The position numbers were made by a program, and so were the translations under genes. A model generated the notes under the pieces. That model saw nothing but the letters and a program-made list of their open reading frames with translations. It was not told the origin of the DNA and searched no databases. Of a DNA stretch of 64,000 bases, positions 11,472-40,293 are shown piece after piece (position 1 is the first letter of the stretch; every line of letters begins with the position of its first letter). This DNA comes from Chloroflexota bacterium. GTDB lineage: Bacteria > Chloroflexota > Dehalococcoidia > Lucifugimonadales > UBA3495. The stretch lies in NCBI GenBank assembly GCA_027623675.1, contig JAQBVF010000007.1:45675-109674 (forward strand). The letters are read 5' to 3'.

Positions 11472-12524
11472 TTAAGGAAGCTGAATCTCTTTGGTGACTG
11501 CGGTGGTGTCGCCGAAGTTGCCGCAGTATAGGACGTGGTACGGCTCAGGCCCTCCGGAAACCGCCACGATTATGTCGTCGGCGGACCGGCAGGGGCACAC
11601 CAGGTCGCCGTCCATGGCGAAGCCGTCCTCGTAGGTGATTACCGAAGTCTCCTTGGGAAACCGGTCGATGGGCACCTTGCTGCGCTCGAATAGCTCCTGC
11701 TTGACCATCTGCTTGTTGTAGCCATTTTCCGCGAAGATACGGGAGTGACCGGGCGTAAGTATCACCAGCGGGTTGCCGGCGGCCAACAGGTAGTTGTTGT
11801 CGCTGATGTCGGCCATGGCGCTGGCGATCATGGTCAGGAAGCTCTCCGGCTCCTTATAGAAGGTGAGGCAGTTGCTGTAGCCCTGCGCTCCCACCACGGT
11901 GACCGTGCTCTGCTCCGGCGAGAAACCGCGCTCCACATGCAGCGGCTCCCAGACGTTGTCCTCTTCGTTCTCGCCCATGCAGGCGCTGAACTTGGCGGCG
12001 CTGCCGTGGACCGCCATGTCGGTGGACCAGGGTTTGGCCCCGCCCACGTTCAGCAGCAACAGGCGCAGCGCGCGTCCGATGGTGGCGTTGGCCCGGTAGC
12101 CCGGCCCCAATGTGCCTCGGCCGCTGTTCAACCCGATCCGGCCTCGCACCGGACCGTTCACGATCATGAGCGGCGACGCCGGGTTGGTGGTGGTCTGCAG
12201 GCCGTGGATGTTGAAGGCCGGTTCGGTTACCGCCTGCACGGCGGCGATGAGGACAGGCATGTATTCCGGGAGACAACCAGCCATCACGGCGTTCACCGCG
12301 ATCTTCTCAACCGTGGCGGCGCCGGCGTCGGGATTGATGTAACCCACCAACTCCGACGCATCCCGCCCCGCGTATTCCAGCATGGCCCGCACGCGGTCTG
12401 CGGTGGGCGGTATCACCGGCAGCCCGTCGGACCAGCCCTGGTCGATCATGAACTGGAATACGGCTTCGGGGGAGTCTTCGGACAATTCCATCTGAGACGA
12501 AGTGAGGCGCGGGTCTACTGCCAT
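11472..12524 (-). CDS. Conserved uncharacterised 'DGLPVxPPT' protein, UGSC-associated partner, paralog 1
   Basis: GWSDGLPVIPPT, ATVEKIAVNAVMAGC, GPGYRANATIGRALRL, GENEE; clear paralog of 36782-37840. Confidence 0.88.
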   Translation of the reverse strand: MAVDPRLTSSQMELSEDSPEAVFQFMIDQGWSDGLPVIPPTADRVRAMLEYAGRDASELVGYINPDAGAATVEKIAVNAVMAGCLPEYMPVLIAAVQAVTEPAFNIHGLQTTTNPASPLMIVNGPVRGRIGLNSGRGTLGPGYRANATIGRALRLLLLNVGGAKPWSTDMAVHGSAAKFSACMGENEEDNVWEPLHVERGFSPEQSTVTVVGAQGYSNCLTFYKEPESFLTMIASAMADISDNNYLLAAGNPLVILTPGHSRIFAENGYNKQMVKQELFERSKVPIDRFPKETSVITYEDGFAMDGDLVCPCRSADDIIVAVSGGPEPYHVLYCGNFGDTTAVTKEIQLP

Positions 12525-12686: not shown

Positions 12687-12895
12687 CTACAGGCTCTTCG
12701 CCCTGTGGTCCAGGACGGCCCTCACTTGGGCGTCGGTCACCCCAGGGAACCATTCAAGAAACTGCGATGTCTGGGCCCCGTCCTCCAGATTCTCGAACAG
12801 CGCGGAAACCGGAACGCGGTTGCCACGAAATACCCAATCGCCGCTAACCCGCTGCAAAAAAGCACAACTGCTGCGCACGAAGACCAATCCAACAT
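12687..12895 (-). pseudogene. DUF433 antitoxin-like gene, frameshifted
   Basis: ATG 12895 gives MLDWSSCAAV; the continuation QRVSGDWVFRGNRVPVSALFENLEDGA..FLEWFPGV is in another frame, with the shift at the T-run near 12857-12862. Confidence 0.75.
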
Positions 12896-13012
12896 AGCCA
12901 AATTTTACCTGCCGTATATCCGCCGTTCAATTCGTCTAAATGCCTTCATCCCAACAACAAGTTTGTTGGGGGCCTCATCATCCGCAAACTCTGATCAATC
13001 TTTCCACACATA

Positions 13013-13232
13013 TCAGCGCCCTTGGAGAAACTCTTGGACGGTCATGTCTCTGGCGACCTGTCTGAGCAGTGGCGGGGCGATATCCCGGCCTTGATGAAAT
13101 GGGGACCGTGGTTGCGCGTCCATCGAGGTGTCCATTTCGCCGGTGCGATCCCCGTCTGCGAACCTCGACGAAACCAAAGCGAACCAGAATCGCGGCAACT
13201 TCGCGGGGGCGCAATACCGGGGAGTTACGCAT
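13013..13232 (-). pseudogene. hicA: HicA-family toxin, frameshifted
   Basis: PVLRPREVAAILVRFGFVEVRRRGSH..DGRATTVP in one frame; FHQGRDIAPPLLRQVARD in another frame from about 13100. Confidence 0.82.
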
Positions 13233-13237
13233 GCTGG

Positions 13238-13444
13238 CTACACTGTCACGCGTTGAGTGCCGACAAATTCTCCTTCCAGCTCAGGGTCCCCGTCCTCAAG
13301 CAGCATCGCGATGACCTCTTTCAAGTTTTCGTTTAATTCATCAAGGCTTGCCGCTTGGGAGTGGGCTCCTGGAAAACCAGGCACGTAACCGACATACAAT
13401 CCGGTCGCCGGATCCTTTTCGATAACCGCTGTGTATTCTTTCAT
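13238..13444 (-). CDS. hicB: HicB-family antitoxin, short form without a DNA-binding domain
   Basis: MKEYTAVIEKDPATGLYVGYVPGFPGAHSQAASLDELNENLKEVI; GAGGA RBS. Confidence 0.9.
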   Translation of the reverse strand: MKEYTAVIEKDPATGLYVGYVPGFPGAHSQAASLDELNENLKEVIAMLLEDGDPELEGEFVGTQRVTV

Positions 13445-13491
13445 GGTTGGTCCTCGGGCTAATGGAATCCACGGAACACAGGTGCCCACGA

Positions 13492-13521
13492 TACCGTTCT
13501 AACGGGCCCGTTAGAACGGTA
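13492..13521. repeat. Perfect 30-bp palindrome
   Basis: TACCGTTCTAACGGGCCCGTTAGAACGGTA equals its own reverse complement. Confidence 0.95.
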
Positions 13522-13541: not shown

Positions 13542-14081
13542 CTATTCCGGCTCGCGTAGCTGGGCGATTATCAGTTCTACGGCCTCTTTGGCCACGGAGC
13601 GCACCACGTCGGGCTCGACGTACTCGGTGAGTTCGGTCTTGGGCAGGACGACCATGGGCGCGTCGGGCATGCCGTTGCCCCGCATGGAAGCCTTGGCCAG
13701 GGTGGTGAACCGCTCGGTTACCAAGACCACCGAGGGCATGCCGCTCTTGATCAGTTTAACGCTGTCGTGGACACTCCACGCGGTGCAGGAACCTCAATTT
13801 GCCAGGCCGACTATGGCCAGTTGGGCGCGCGCCTCCACCTCGTCGAAGGTCGCTTGGGGAGCCGCCGAGGCCAGGGGGATCAACCTCTCAAAGACTTCGG
13901 TCACACCGTACTGTTCCTTGAGGATGATGCCGATCTGCTCGGAGATGATGTTCATGCTGGTCCAGCGGTTGTTCAGTATGGCGACCGTGGCGCCTTGCAG
14001 ATCGTTTATGTGGGGGATGTGGCCGTCCATGGGACGCCACGCCTCCGCCGCCGGGCTGAGGATCGACATCTTGTTGACCAT
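13542..14081 (-). CDS. UGSC-family selenoprotein, paralog 1 (Sec at UGA 13794-13796)
   Basis: ORFs 13794-14105 and 13542-13739 are in the same frame and join through TGA: IVGLAN-U-GSCTAWSVHDSVKLIKSGMPSVVLVTERF. AAGGAG RBS lies 7 nt before ATG 14081. Confidence 0.88.
13766..13780 (-). promoter_or_regulatory. Putative bacterial SECIS element
   Basis: mRNA hairpin CGUGGA-GUG-UCCACG starts 13 nt after the UGA. Confidence 0.65.
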
Positions 14082-14119
14082 GGCCATGCTCCTTCGCCTC
14101 TCCAAAGGTGAATCCGGAC

Positions 14120-14746
14120 CTAGCGGTTGGCGGCCGCGCTCTTTGCCGGGTCATACACCGGGCGGACCATCTCGTAACGGTCGCTGGTGCGGCAGTACAT
14201 GTTGCCCGCCATGCGGCCGGTGGCCATGAGCTTCTCCTGGTCGATGCGGTGCCCGTTGATAATGTCGTCACGGACGTGCATCAAGACGATGGTGCCGATA
14301 ACCAGTCCATGCTCGTGGTCACCGGAGCCGATCTGCACCACCTGGTCCAGCTTACATTCGATGTTCACCGGAGATTCAAGCACCCTGGGGGCTTTGACGA
14401 TATCCGAGGGTGCATGGGTCAGCCCGGCAATCTCGAACTCATCCACGCCCTCGGGGAATTCGGCCGCGGTGGCATTCATCGCCTCAGCAATGGGATCTAC
14501 CACGATGTTCACCACGAACTCGCCGGTCTCTTCGATGTTCCGCAGGGTGTCCTTGCTCTTGTTACCAACGTGCCGGGAAGACGAGAAAACGACGGTGGTG
14601 TAGGACACGGCATTGAAGAATGAGTAAGGCGCCAGGTTGACCACGCCGTCGGGGGACACGGAAGATACGAACGCGATGGGCCTGGGAACGATCACTCCGG
14701 TGAGGACGCGGTTGAAACCTTCAAATGTATTTGGGTCGATCTTCAA
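14120..14746 (-). CDS. Flavin reductase-like protein (DIM6/NTAB, FMN-binding split barrel)
   Basis: VPRPIAFVSS, NLAPYSFFN, KDTLRNIEETGEFVVN, SPVNIECKL. Confidence 0.92.
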   Translation of the reverse strand: MKIDPNTFEGFNRVLTGVIVPRPIAFVSSVSPDGVVNLAPYSFFNAVSYTTVVFSSSRHVGNKSKDTLRNIEETGEFVVNIVVDPIAEAMNATAAEFPEGVDEFEIAGLTHAPSDIVKAPRVLESPVNIECKLDQVVQIGSGDHEHGLVIGTIVLMHVRDDIINGHRIDQEKLMATGRMAGNMYCRTSDRYEMVRPVYDPAKSAAANR

Positions 14747-16121: not shown

Positions 16122-16862
16122 CTAACTGACTTTGGCCCCGGCCTGCATCTTTTGGATCGCGCCGTCCAGTTCTTCTAGGTCGAACAGGTGGGGGCCGGCG
16201 CCGCCGTGGTAAACGACTTTGCCGTCCTTGCCGATCAGGTACAGGCGCTCCGGGGCAGCCCCGTAAGCCTCGTCGATGGCGTTGTCCATCTCTTCAACCA
16301 AGGTTGGAAGTGAGATGTGCAGCCCGATGGTGCAGGACTGGGCGGCCTCTTCCCGTTCCTCGTAGCTTTGGTGTTGGCGCAGCAGGACACCTTCCTCGAC
16401 ATTGGAATCGGTCTGCCAGCCGTCGGTGGGGTGGGCCTCTTGAACGTAAACCACGAAGAACTCGATGTGGTCCTGGTACTGGCTGTAGAGTTGCTCCATG
16501 CGCTCAACCTGAGCGCGGAAGGGCGGTCAAGTGTAGCTGCCAAAGATCAGGGCCACGGGCCGTTTATCTTTGAAGCTGGACAGCCGGACCCGCTCCTCCG
16601 AGCCCGCCCGCTTTAGTTCGAAATCGGGGGGCACATCGCCAACGTGAGGGCCCATCTCGTCCCGGGCCACCACTGCTTCCATGGCCTCGCGCAGGATGGG
16701 GGTCAGGTTTCCGCCGATCGCCTCTAGCATCTCGCGGGCCGGCATCTGACCGACGGTCGTCCCCTCGCGTTTTGCCCGGTAGTCGTCCATGAACCGCCGG
16801 AACAGTTTCCGGTCATCGCCCTGAAGGTTCCCCAGTATCTGGTCTCGGTCTGCTTTCAGCAT
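16122..16862 (-). CDS. Iodothyronine deiodinase-like selenoprotein (Sec at UGA 16527-16529)
   Basis: ORFs 16527-16934 and 16122-16499 join in frame: RPVALIFGSYT-U-PPFRAQ...VYVQEAHPTDGW...YGAAPERLY, the deiodinase signature motifs. Start ATG 16862 follows AAGGGGAAGG. Confidence 0.92.
16500..16516 (-). promoter_or_regulatory. Putative bacterial SECIS element
   Basis: mRNA hairpin GCGCUCA-GGU-UGAGCGC starts 10 nt after the UGA. Confidence 0.7.
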
Positions 16863-36781: not shown

Positions 36782-37840
36782 TTAAGCGTGTTTGACGATC
36801 TCTTCCGTGGCCATCCGAGTGACGCCCCACCCGGCCAACCAAGCAGAATGACGGCCATCGCCTCCGGCAACAATGGGCACGATGTCGCTTGAAGAGCGCA
36901 CGATGGGCACCAGGGTCTCGGGGTTGGTCTCATCCACCCAACTGGGCCAGTTGCGGTTTCCATAGTGCGCTCGTCCCACCAACACCTTCATCGGCATTCG
37001 TGCGTTCTGGTAGACGTATTCCTGGATATCGGACTTGGACAGTCCTGAGGCGGCAATCTCTTCGGCATGCTCTGGGCAGATGACCAACACGATCTGGGCG
37101 CCGGTACCTATCTGGTAGTAATTCGAGATTCCAGTTGCCTTCATATTGCCAACGATCGTCTGCAATACCTCCAGTCCGGTGGACACGGTTGTCTCCATGA
37201 TGGTGTATACGCCCCGAACCGCCACCACGGTCACCGTGCTGGAGCCTGCGGGATAACCAAGCTGGATGTTTCTGGCCTCCCAGGGACTGCGCTCCTCGTT
37301 CTCGGCGAAGCAGAAGCTGTAGCGTCCGGGCGTGGCCAGCGTGGCCTTGTCCATGACCCCGGGTATCAGCCCACCCACATTGCGGATGACCAACCGCAGC
37401 GCCCTGCCGATGGCTGCATTCGCCCTGGAGCCCGGCCCGAAGCAGGCGGCATCACCGTTTATGCCCAGCTCCTTGGCTATGGGGCCGTTGACGATCACCA
37501 CCTGGGCTGCTCCACCGGTGGTTGCGGCGTTACCCCCCAAGTTGAAGTCCTTGTCCAGGGCCGCTTTCACCGCAGCGACCACCACTGGGAAATACTCCGG
37601 CTTACAACCGGCCATGACCGAGTTGATCGCTATCTTCTCCAGCGTCGCCTGGGAGTTCCGAGGCTGCATCGTGCCCAGGGAGAACGACGGGGCTCCGCCG
37701 TACCCGGCCAGCATCGCGCGCACTAGCGGTTCCGTGGGCGGCACCACCGGCAACCCGTCCGTCCATCCCTGGTCCCAGCAGTAGTCCTGGATGTCCTGGA
37801 AGGAATCGGATACCTCTACGCGCCTAGCATTTAGAGTCAC
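36782..37840 (-). CDS. Conserved uncharacterised 'DGLPVxPPT' protein, UGSC-associated partner, paralog 2
   Basis: GWTDGLPVVPPT, ATLEKIAINSVMAGC, GPGSRANAAIGRALRL, AENEE. Confidence 0.88.
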   Translation of the reverse strand: MTLNARRVEVSDSFQDIQDYCWDQGWTDGLPVVPPTEPLVRAMLAGYGGAPSFSLGTMQPRNSQATLEKIAINSVMAGCKPEYFPVVVAAVKAALDKDFNLGGNAATTGGAAQVVIVNGPIAKELGINGDAACFGPGSRANAAIGRALRLVIRNVGGLIPGVMDKATLATPGRYSFCFAENEERSPWEARNIQLGYPAGSSTVTVVAVRGVYTIMETTVSTGLEVLQTIVGNMKATGISNYYQIGTGAQIVLVICPEHAEEIAASGLSKSDIQEYVYQNARMPMKVLVGRAHYGNRNWPSWVDETNPETLVPIVRSSSDIVPIVAGGDGRHSAWLAGWGVTRMATEEIVKHA

Positions 37841-38010: not shown

Positions 38011-38553
38011 TTACTTCCCCGTGAGCAGTCCTACGATCTCCGGTGCGAAATCGCGGGCCATCTGCTGGACCTCGGGGATGGTCCTGGGAGCCAGCGGACT
38101 GGGCAGCACCACGATGCGGGCGCCCGGCATGCCCAGAGCAGTCGCCCTGGCGTGGGCTGCCCTGGTAAAGGTGCTGGTTATCACGCTGACGGAAGGCTTT
38201 CCCTTGGATTCTGTGATCACTGTGTCGTGGAGACCCCACGCTGTGCAGGACCCTCAATCCGCGATGGCGTGTATCACCACATCGCATTCGTCGACCAGCG
38301 ACTGAATCGTGTCGTCGGCACAGGGGGCGCTGTAGGTGAACTTGGTGGCGTAGACCACTTTTGCGGCGCCGTAGTCCTTGAGTAGCACCTCTTTCAGCTC
38401 GCCCAAGAAGGCGTCGGCGTGGTACTTGCGGTTCTCCAGCAGACCCACCACTTTGCCCTGCAGATCGGGCAGTGCGTCGCTCAGGCCCAACTCCTCGGGA
38501 ACATCCTCCGCGGTGGGATCCAGTATCTCAATCATTCGTGTTGCTTGCGCCAT
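38011..38553 (-). CDS. UGSC-family selenoprotein, paralog 2 (Sec at UGA 38254-38256)
   Basis: ORFs 38254-38553 and 38011-38220 join in frame: VIHAIAD-U-GSCTAWGLHDTVITESKGKPSVSVITSTF. Confidence 0.9.
38226..38240 (-). promoter_or_regulatory. Putative bacterial SECIS element
   Basis: mRNA hairpin CGUGG-GGUCU-CCACG starts 13 nt after the UGA, the same position as in paralog 1. Confidence 0.65.
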
Positions 38554-38621: not shown

Positions 38622-39758
38622 CTAGCCGCCCATCTGGAAGAATTTGCCCTCTGTTTTGATGGAAGGGGCGATGACCATCTCGGCTTTGTGCAGGTCCCGG
38701 ATGGTGTAGGCGCCGCACATGCCCATGGCAACCCTAAGGGCGCCGATGAAGTTTTGCGTGCCGTCGGTGCGGGAGGTAGGACCGTACAATATCTGTTTCA
38801 GCGTGCCCTTGGTCCCAACGGAGATGCGGGTGCCTCTGGGCAGTTCGGGGTGAGGGTTGGCCATGCCCCAGTTGTAGCCGTGGCCGGGGGCCTCTTCCGC
38901 CTGGGCGAAGGGTGTTCCCAGCATCACGCCGTCCGCGCCGCTGACCATGGCTTTGCAGATATCACCGCCGGTCCGGAAACCGCCGTCGGTTATGACACTG
39001 ACGTAGCGGCCGGTGCGCCTGAAGTAATCTTCCCTGGCCGCCGCGCATTGGAGCGTCGCGGTTACCTGGGGAACGCCAACTCCCACCACCTCGCGGGTGG
39101 TGCAGGCGGCACCGGGACCAACGCCGACCAATAATCCGTCGATGCCGGTTTCCATCAGTTCCGAAGCCACTTCATAGGTGACGCAGTTGCCAACGACAAC
39201 CGGCACTTTCAGAGCCTCGATAAGCTCCGAGAAGACCAGTCCGCGGTAGCTGTTGGACATGTGCCGGGCGGTGGTGACGGTGGACTGGACAACCACCATG
39301 TCGGCCCCGGCCTCAACGGCGGCGGGTGACATGCGTTTGGTGTTCTGGGGGGTGAAAGAAACGGCGCACGTGGCGCCGGTGCTCTTGATCTCGCGGACCC
39401 GCTTGCCGATCAGCTCGTCGCGGATGGGTTCAGAGTATACCTTTTGAAGGAATTCGGTGACTGATTCCTGGGGGCAGGAGATTATCTCTTCAAGGACTGC
39501 ATAGGGGTCGTCGTATCTGGTATATAGGCCCTCGGCGTTCAGGACGCCCAGACCGCCCATCTCATGCATGTACGAAGCGAATCCCGGCGACACAGTCCCG
39601 TCCATCGCCGAAGCCATGACGGGAATCTCAAACTCCAAGTCGCCGATGGTCATCTTGGTGGAGGTCAATTCGGGGTTGATCGTGACTTGCCCAGGCACGA
39701 TTGCCACTTCATCGAAGCCGTACGAGCGTTCTAGTTCTTTAAAGAGCCTTCTCCCCAT
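38622..39758 (-). CDS. guaB: IMP dehydrogenase-related protein (GuaB3 type, no CBS domains)
   Basis: [16 protein letters not shown] (catalytic Cys), ITDGG, VMLGTP, WGMA. Confidence 0.92.
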
Positions 39759-40175: not shown

Positions 40176-40293
40176 TCCTGGTGGTTCTAGCGAGGTGGCC
40201 CCACCCGTTTCCATCCCGAACACGGTAGTGAAACGCCTCAGCGCCTACGATACTGCTCTGGCGACGGAGTGGGAAAATAGGTCATCGCCAGGA
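40176..40293 (+). rRNA. rrf: 5S ribosomal RNA
   Basis: TCCTGGTG...CACCCGTTTCCATCCCGAACACGGTAGTGAAACGCCTCAGCGCC..GATACT..GGGAAAATAGGTCATCGCCAGGA; terminal helix TCCTGG/CCAGGA. Confidence 0.97.

Follow-up and report, generated by a model that had tools for sequence, protein, structure and literature searches.

A putative UGSC-family selenoprotein gene of a divergent subclade and its candidate partner protein U1 in a Dehalococcoidia genome

The window, the 64-kb stretch of DNA analysed here, carries on its minus strand a frame that runs from the ATG at 14081 to the TAG at 13544..13542 and has a single internal stop, the TGA at 13796..13794. When this stop is read through, the gene (13542..14081) comprises 179 codons plus the TAG, and the TGA is codon 96. 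Around it the minus strand reads GCC ATA GTC GGC CTG GCA AAT TGA GGT TCC TGC ACC GCG TGG AGT GTC CAC GAC, with AAT (Asn) before the TGA and GGT TCC TGC (Gly-Ser-Cys) after it, giving the motif N-U-G-S-C. The first-pass annotation had placed a TGA at 13794-13796, followed by Gly-Ser-Cys and by a frame open to 13542, and these coordinates were all verified in the sequence. It had also stated that standard gene callers would split the gene, and ORF calling with translation table 11 indeed cuts it into exactly two ORFs (13794..14105 and 13542..13739), as happens to its relatives. As judged from the sequence, ATG 14081 is the best start of the gene: a Shine-Dalgarno-like AAGGAG, read from the minus strand at 14089..14094, is located 7 nt before it, and the Met is conserved in relatives such as the close relative P0002.

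Directly upstream on the same strand lies a flavin-reductase-like gene (14120..14746; PF01613, 85.5 bits), which ends 38 nt before ATG 14081, the distance given in the first-pass annotation. A promoter-like site is present upstream of the flavin-reductase gene (14851-14823, minus strand), and no terminator-like site was detected on the minus strand between the two genes. Their order is kept in four of six orthologous loci (L030-L033). From these features of the sequence it is plausible that both genes are co-transcribed. The operon order in the subclade of the window is flavin reductase, the selenoprotein gene (termed UGSC here after its protein family, see below) and a gene for a 350-residue protein that we call U1 (11472..12524, minus strand); this operon adjoins a divergent sulfopyruvate-decarboxylase-like TPP pair.

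In the window itself, U1 is found about 1 kb from UGSC, and a HicA/HicB toxin-antitoxin pair (12978..13489, minus strand; PF07927, PF15919) is located between them. The two genes of this pair are encoded at 13238-13489 and 12978-13232, and a further ORF of 66 residues follows at 12687-12887, all on the minus strand. Since HicAB and the 66-residue ORF are absent from the UGSC-U1 interval in the orthologous loci, it is probable that the toxin-antitoxin pair was inserted locally and does not belong to the UGSC-U1 system. A perfect 13-bp hairpin is present at 13492-13521 (minus strand), between the UGSC stop, which it follows at approximately 20 nt, and the adjoining start of hicB; the 81-nt stretch with this hairpin folds with -32.2 kcal/mol (z = -3.47). 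The hairpin could act as a terminator lacking a U tract or as the hicAB operator, or it could mark the edge of the HicAB insertion.

The read-through translation (187 residues) scores 108.4 bits for PF24696, the UGSC family, whose gathering score is 25, and the match covers residues 27-183 and thus continues across the UGA. A search of 5.8 billion protein sequences returned 12 matches to UGSC, seven of which are full-length (178-196 residues, listed at about 50% identity). All seven carry CGSC at the position aligned to UGSC and align across the codon, so that homologs with Cys in place of the UGA, a check proposed in the first-pass annotation, do exist. Four of the remaining five matches are pieces of closer UGSC relatives: P0002 and P0010 stop at ...VGLAN, and P0013 begins at an internal Met past the UGA, which indicates that gene callers split close relatives of the gene. 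In an alignment of 21 sequences, U/C96, G97, C99 and D106 are invariant and H105 is nearly so.

The genome to which the window belongs (3.07 Mb in 48 contigs, 61% G+C) encodes the components required for selenocysteine incorporation, for which the first-pass annotation had advised a search. We identified selD (380 bits), selA (555 bits) and selB (348 bits), each above its family cut-off, and a tRNA-Sec with 70 bits and the anticodon tca (ARAGORN). The selD gene itself contains one in-frame TGA. The window gene is also not an isolated case: eight PF24696 matches were found in the genome, each with exactly one in-frame TGA. The motif is D-U-GSC in six of these paralogs, N-U-GSC in the window gene and H-U-GGC in one copy that is fused to U1. 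A TGA at the same codon is present in all six orthologous loci, five of them in Dehalococcoidia MAGs and the sixth in a MAG of the Comamonadaceae. UGSC was detected in 34 of the 41 related genomes searched, in all 19 genomes of the genus with 5-12 copies each, and in all 24 other genomes of the family. Stop codon usage was counted in 921 open frames of at least 400 codons, a crude count that includes non-coding frames: TAG ends 423, TAA 271 and TGA 227 of them, making TGA the rarest stop in spite of the 61% G+C. TGA also terminates the UGSC paralog on C12 and otherwise functions as an ordinary stop in this genome.

Taken as a whole, the sequence, the read-through translation, the conservation of the TGA and the Cys in homologs point to the in-frame UGA at 13794..13796 (minus strand) as the codon of Sec96. 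These comparisons strongly support the insertion of selenocysteine at this codon by the SelA, SelB, SelD and tRNA-Sec that the genome encodes, and we consider it highly probable that the product of 14081..13542 (minus strand) is a single UGSC-family selenoprotein of 179 residues. The UxxC redox motif of a selenoprotein, as the first-pass annotation had read it, is thus backed by the PF24696 match that spans the UGA, by the CGSC homologs and by the Sec machinery. Of the two observations that would have refuted it according to the first-pass annotation, a lack of Sec machinery and homologs failing to align over the UGA, neither was made when both were looked for. Read-through would yield a selenol/thiol redox pair, U-G-S-C.

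Were the UGA a true stop, the locus would be a pseudogene or would encode an N-terminal protein of 95 residues, perhaps together with a second, separate product of 65 residues that begins at ATG 13739. Table-11 calling returns just these two ORFs, the databases contain such pieces for relatives, and the hairpin downstream of the UGA is not significant on its own (see below); yet the Pfam domain and the Cys homologs continue uninterrupted over the codon, the TGA is held at one position in 6/6 orthologs and 8/8 paralogs, a pattern unexpected under decay, and the genome has a complete Sec machinery, which leaves termination at this codon very improbable. Still less credit is due to a reading of UGA as one of the standard residues Trp, Gly or Cys by another genetic code or general suppression, for which nothing specific speaks except that TGA is the least used stop in long open frames, whereas many long frames still end at TGA, among them the C12 UGSC paralog and hicA of the window, the in-frame TGAs observed are single and at known Sec positions (in the UGSC, SelD, deiodinase-like and PrdB-like genes), and a dedicated tRNA-Sec exists.

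In bacterial SECIS elements, the G/U of the apical loop lies about 16-37 nt from the UGA. A hairpin of this pattern had been reported 13 nt downstream of the UGA in the first-pass annotation, and the SECIS-like element CGUGGA-GUG-UCCACG (13766..13780, minus strand) is indeed present there, with the G/U of its loop about 20 nt from the UGA. Taken by itself it folds no better than expected by chance (z = +0.83; 160 of 200 shuffled sequences fold at least as well), and its weight therefore rests on the comparison between genes. All 14 related genes compared (eight paralogs and six orthologs) have this stem, at an unchanged offset. Its six core pairs are formed nearly throughout, and two flanking pairs are formed in seven and five of the 14 genes, respectively. 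Compensatory changes are seen at pair 24:30, which is G-C in ten genes and C-G in four; here a change between Trp and Cys codons is matched by a synonymous change in a Val codon. The covariation of the hairpin is 0.18 compared to 0.061 in shuffled alignments (0 of 500 reach 0.18) and at most 0.056 for slid partners. Part of this conservation is protein-driven, since the hairpin is located within conserved coding sequence. Like the bacterial SECIS of the fdhF type, the hairpin lies inside the coding sequence soon after the UGA and exposes G/U in a small apical loop; it differs in its core stem, which is very short at 6 bp (some paralogs reach 8 bp), and in its 3-nt loop. No Rfam family was found for the hairpin in the region 13700-13830 at E values up to 10. 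The comparison between genes strongly supports a role of this short hairpin 13 nt past the UGA in decoding the Sec codon.

The UGSC family is already published, and the window gene is therefore a correct rediscovery of a member of an established family and not a new selenoprotein family. Recognition of the family dates back to the surveys of the Sargasso Sea and of GOS. Among the selenoprotein families of the GOS ocean metagenomes it is one of the major and most abundant, with 255 Sec sequences versus 21 Cys homologs (PMC2398784), and a later survey attributes 8.2% of selenoprotein genes to it (PMC9402790). It has been described as "a selenoprotein of unknown function" (PMC1976440) and is named in two reviews (PMC9312934, PMC13188914), the latter of which, from 2026, states that the functions of such selenoprotein families are still largely uncharacterized (PMC13188914). 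Dehalococcoidia MAGs have been counted among the bacteria richest in selenoproteins (PMC13326102). The passages on UGSC selenoproteins consulted in the literature describe no partner beyond a fusion to an unknown domain.

As far as the family is portrayed in these sources and in its models (PF24696, NF041046), the window protein resembles it in domain, length, motif column, the existence of Cys forms and the fusion to an unknown domain. It departs from the typical UGSC protein as a member of a divergent N-U-GSC subclade with the sequence AIVGLAN-U-GSC. Its score for the equivalog model NF041046, "UGSC family (seleno)protein", is 86.5 bits and does not reach the cut-off of 125, which places it in a divergent subclade of the Pfam family; the cut-off is passed by five of the eight paralogs of the genome, and three, including the window protein, remain below. 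The gene call by itself is of modest importance. Genomes of this kind have more selenoproteins than are counted, because gene callers cut the gene and its relatives in two and the subclade escapes the NCBIfam model.

The AlphaFold2 model of UGSC (pLDDT 87.8, pTM 0.83) consists of five parallel beta-alpha units. U96 is placed between the strand 88-94 and the helix 97-112, and the UxxC motif follows strand 3. The predicted domain is of a flavodoxin-like alpha/beta type, and the redox pair would lie at the N-terminus of its third helix. Structural matches of the model are generic flavodoxin-, receiver- or Rossmann-like folds with Foldseek TM values of at most 0.50, and a VIA search gave a top Z of 11.4 and 378 chains with Z of at least 8. 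No thioredoxin-fold chain is among the top structural matches listed for the model. In thioredoxin-fold oxidoreductases, the fold suggested in print for UGSC, the UxxC/CxxC motif follows strand 1, whereas it comes after strand 3 in the predicted UGSC structure.

The Sec region of UGSC appears to resemble that of GrdB and PrdB, the selenoprotein B subunits of glycine/sarcosine/betaine reductase and of D-proline reductase (TIGR01917, TIGR01918, PF07355). With hmmscan, the paralog L022 matches TIGR01917 over the Sec region (E 2.1e-6), and hhalign of UGSC versus 24 GrdB/PrdB-like sequences gave a probability of 65.7% and an E value of 5.7e-5 over about 84 columns, with Sec aligned on Sec. Significance was not reached when only three GrdB-like sequences were used (probability 0.7%, E 0.082). 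The window protein had no GrdB match at an E value of 0.01 or better, and the best UGSC paralog scored 24.6 bits for TIGR01918, below the cut-off of 65.45. Both groups appear to share a hydrophobic strand, U-x-x-C/S, a helix, G-I/L-P and a further strand. UGSC lacks the approximately 340-residue N-terminal GRDB domain, however. By sequence profile, UGSC, U1 and GrdB-like proteins are all without a meaningful match in the PDB. A distant relationship between UGSC and GrdB/PrdB that is limited to the Sec-loop unit is probable from these alignments. In the same genome, three PrdB/GrdB-like selenoprotein genes with the motif T-P-x-U-P-x-C were observed (C18:39342-40124, C5:31238-32401 and C10:78607-79740), and some related genomes contain full-length GrdB-like genes with the motif ST-U-GTST.

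GrdB and PrdB function together with a second, substrate-binding subunit. The candidate partner of UGSC, U1, shows no similarity to their pyruvoyl proprotein partner GrdE/PrdA, and seven U1 paralogs are without a Pfam match at E values up to 10. PF09338 (GrdE/PrdA) was not found in the genome, with a search that gave no match in any control genome either. For the window U1 (11472..12524), too, no relative was detected in Pfam, NCBIfam or the PDB.

U1 is tightly associated with UGSC. In the genome, all eight UGSC genes have a U1 gene beside them on the same strand, one pair being fused, and tblastn detects nine U1 copies. Five near-complete relatives have equal copy numbers of UGSC and U1 (8/8, 3/3, 5/5, 4/4 and 3/3), and for 20 of their 23 UGSC genes a U1 on the same strand is located no more than 1 kb away, two of these pairs being fused; for the other three, U1 is found at 1.7 kb on the opposite strand, at 6.4 kb or not at all. 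In the orthologous loci L031, L033 and L035, U1 follows directly after UGSC with 8-104 nt between the matched stretches, and in L032 the distance is about 0.9 kb. In the fused copy of the genome (C46:13477-15186, locus L029/L041), one open frame spans both proteins; it contains one TGA, and its motif is H-U-GGC. Long UGSC-U1-like frames are also present in the relatives G020 and G035. The ninth U1 (C26:103059-104144) follows a 674-residue ORF, and no UGSC gene is present within the 6 kb examined. The genes next to the other seven UGSC/U1 pairs encode luciferase-like monooxygenases (four genes at three loci), NHL propellers (two), DUF1326, SDR, acyl-CoA dehydrogenase, TPP enzymes and others; a third gene common to all UGSC/U1 pairs of the genome was not found.

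U1 belongs to a large family: among 8,000 candidates that were scored, 7,990 reach an E value of at most 0.001, and those with a name in their source are called hypothetical. Alignment of U1 proteins shows the invariant motifs DGxPxxPP and AVMAGC (containing Cys84) as well as invariant Cys182, Glu185 and Trp192. The U1 structure was modelled with a pLDDT of 89.9 and a pTM of 0.90. Neither structural search was strong enough to name its fold: the best Foldseek match, a class I fumarate hydratase, has a TM of 0.29, and with VIA the best Z is 4.5, with none of 48,161 chains at Z 5. In the protein atlas, U1 falls into unnamed clusters, clusters automatically named "thioredoxin family" and one 417-residue cluster in which 16% of the members carry PF24696; these are leads only.

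Complex formation was predicted for the window U1 and the Cys-form UGSC protein P0003, which served as a stand-in and is about 43-51% identical to the window protein. The pair passed with ipSAE values of 0.68, 0.70 and 0.74 (median 0.70), whereas the best of three controls scored 0.00. At least 95% of the contacts agree between the runs, and the pLDDT of the partner is 84 or higher. In the calibration of the tool, 58 of 80 solved complexes and 2 of 110 mismatched pairs attained the mark, counts that apply here only roughly since self-made alignments were supplied. As neither UGSC nor U1 has a solved relative, the result is not the recall of a known complex. On the side of P0003, the predicted interface consists of the N-terminal 11 residues, residues 93-99 (C-G-S-C-T-A-W) and His102; on the side of U1, it comprises the PPT motif (39-42), residues 77-81 adjoining Cys84, and residues 105-114 and 155-162. 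The predicted complex supports binding of UGSC to U1.

We infer that UGSC is probably the small, Sec-bearing subunit and U1 the large subunit of a two-subunit enzyme. The UGSC motif would dock on conserved surfaces of U1 near the AVMAGC segment that holds Cys84; Sec would attack or reduce a substrate bound to U1 and then form a Se-S bond with Cys99. The Sec/Cys99 pair would subsequently be re-reduced, at this locus possibly via the co-operonic flavin reductase.

In the literature, UGSC is assumed to be a free-standing, thioredoxin-like thiol/selenol oxidoreductase. U1 would then be a frequent neighbour or one of several clients. UxxC is typical of thiol oxidoreductases, and three of the 23 UGSC genes in the relatives are without a tightly linked U1. 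We nevertheless regard a free-standing enzyme as unlikely: the predicted topology of five parallel beta-alpha units is not that of thioredoxin, none of the listed top structural matches has a thioredoxin fold, the copy numbers of UGSC and U1 are one-to-one with recurrent fusions, and the predicted complex, which passed, has the redox motif in its interface.

The two-subunit enzyme composed of UGSC and U1 can be specified further. There is a somewhat better than even chance that both proteins form a two-subunit selenoenzyme family not described in the literature searched, in which the substrate, a small molecule, would differ from pair to pair. We lean slightly towards the combined assignment of UGSC as the small flavodoxin-like subunit, with a Sec loop distantly akin to that of GrdB/PrdB, and of U1 as the catalytic subunit. 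The UGSC-U1 pairing, the passed complex prediction and the link of the Sec loop to GrdB/PrdB turn the question of function into concrete experiments. If true, the two-subunit reading would give a function and an assay handle to one of the ocean's most abundant selenoprotein families, and the UGSC-U1 pair would have been multiplied to eight copies in a marine-type Dehalococcoidia genome, beside flavin reductases, luciferase-like monooxygenases and other oxidoreductases.

The window contains several further features. At gathering thresholds, Rfam reports nothing in the whole window besides a 5S rRNA and a tRNA; no 16S or 23S rRNA match is found within the 64 kb, and the 5S rRNA gene (40177-40293, plus strand) stands alone. 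A second UGSC gene is encoded at 38011-38553 (minus strand), with its TGA at 38254-38256 and the motif D-U-GSC. It is preceded by an IMPDH/FMN-dehydrogenase-like gene (38622-39758, minus strand), and a U1 paralog is located directly downstream (36782-37840, minus strand). A deiodinase-like selenoprotein gene extends from 16122 to about 16862 (minus strand) and is likewise split by ORF calling at a TGA (16527-16529); when read through, it has the motif FGSYT-U-PPF, and its C-terminal piece matches PF00837 and NF038285.
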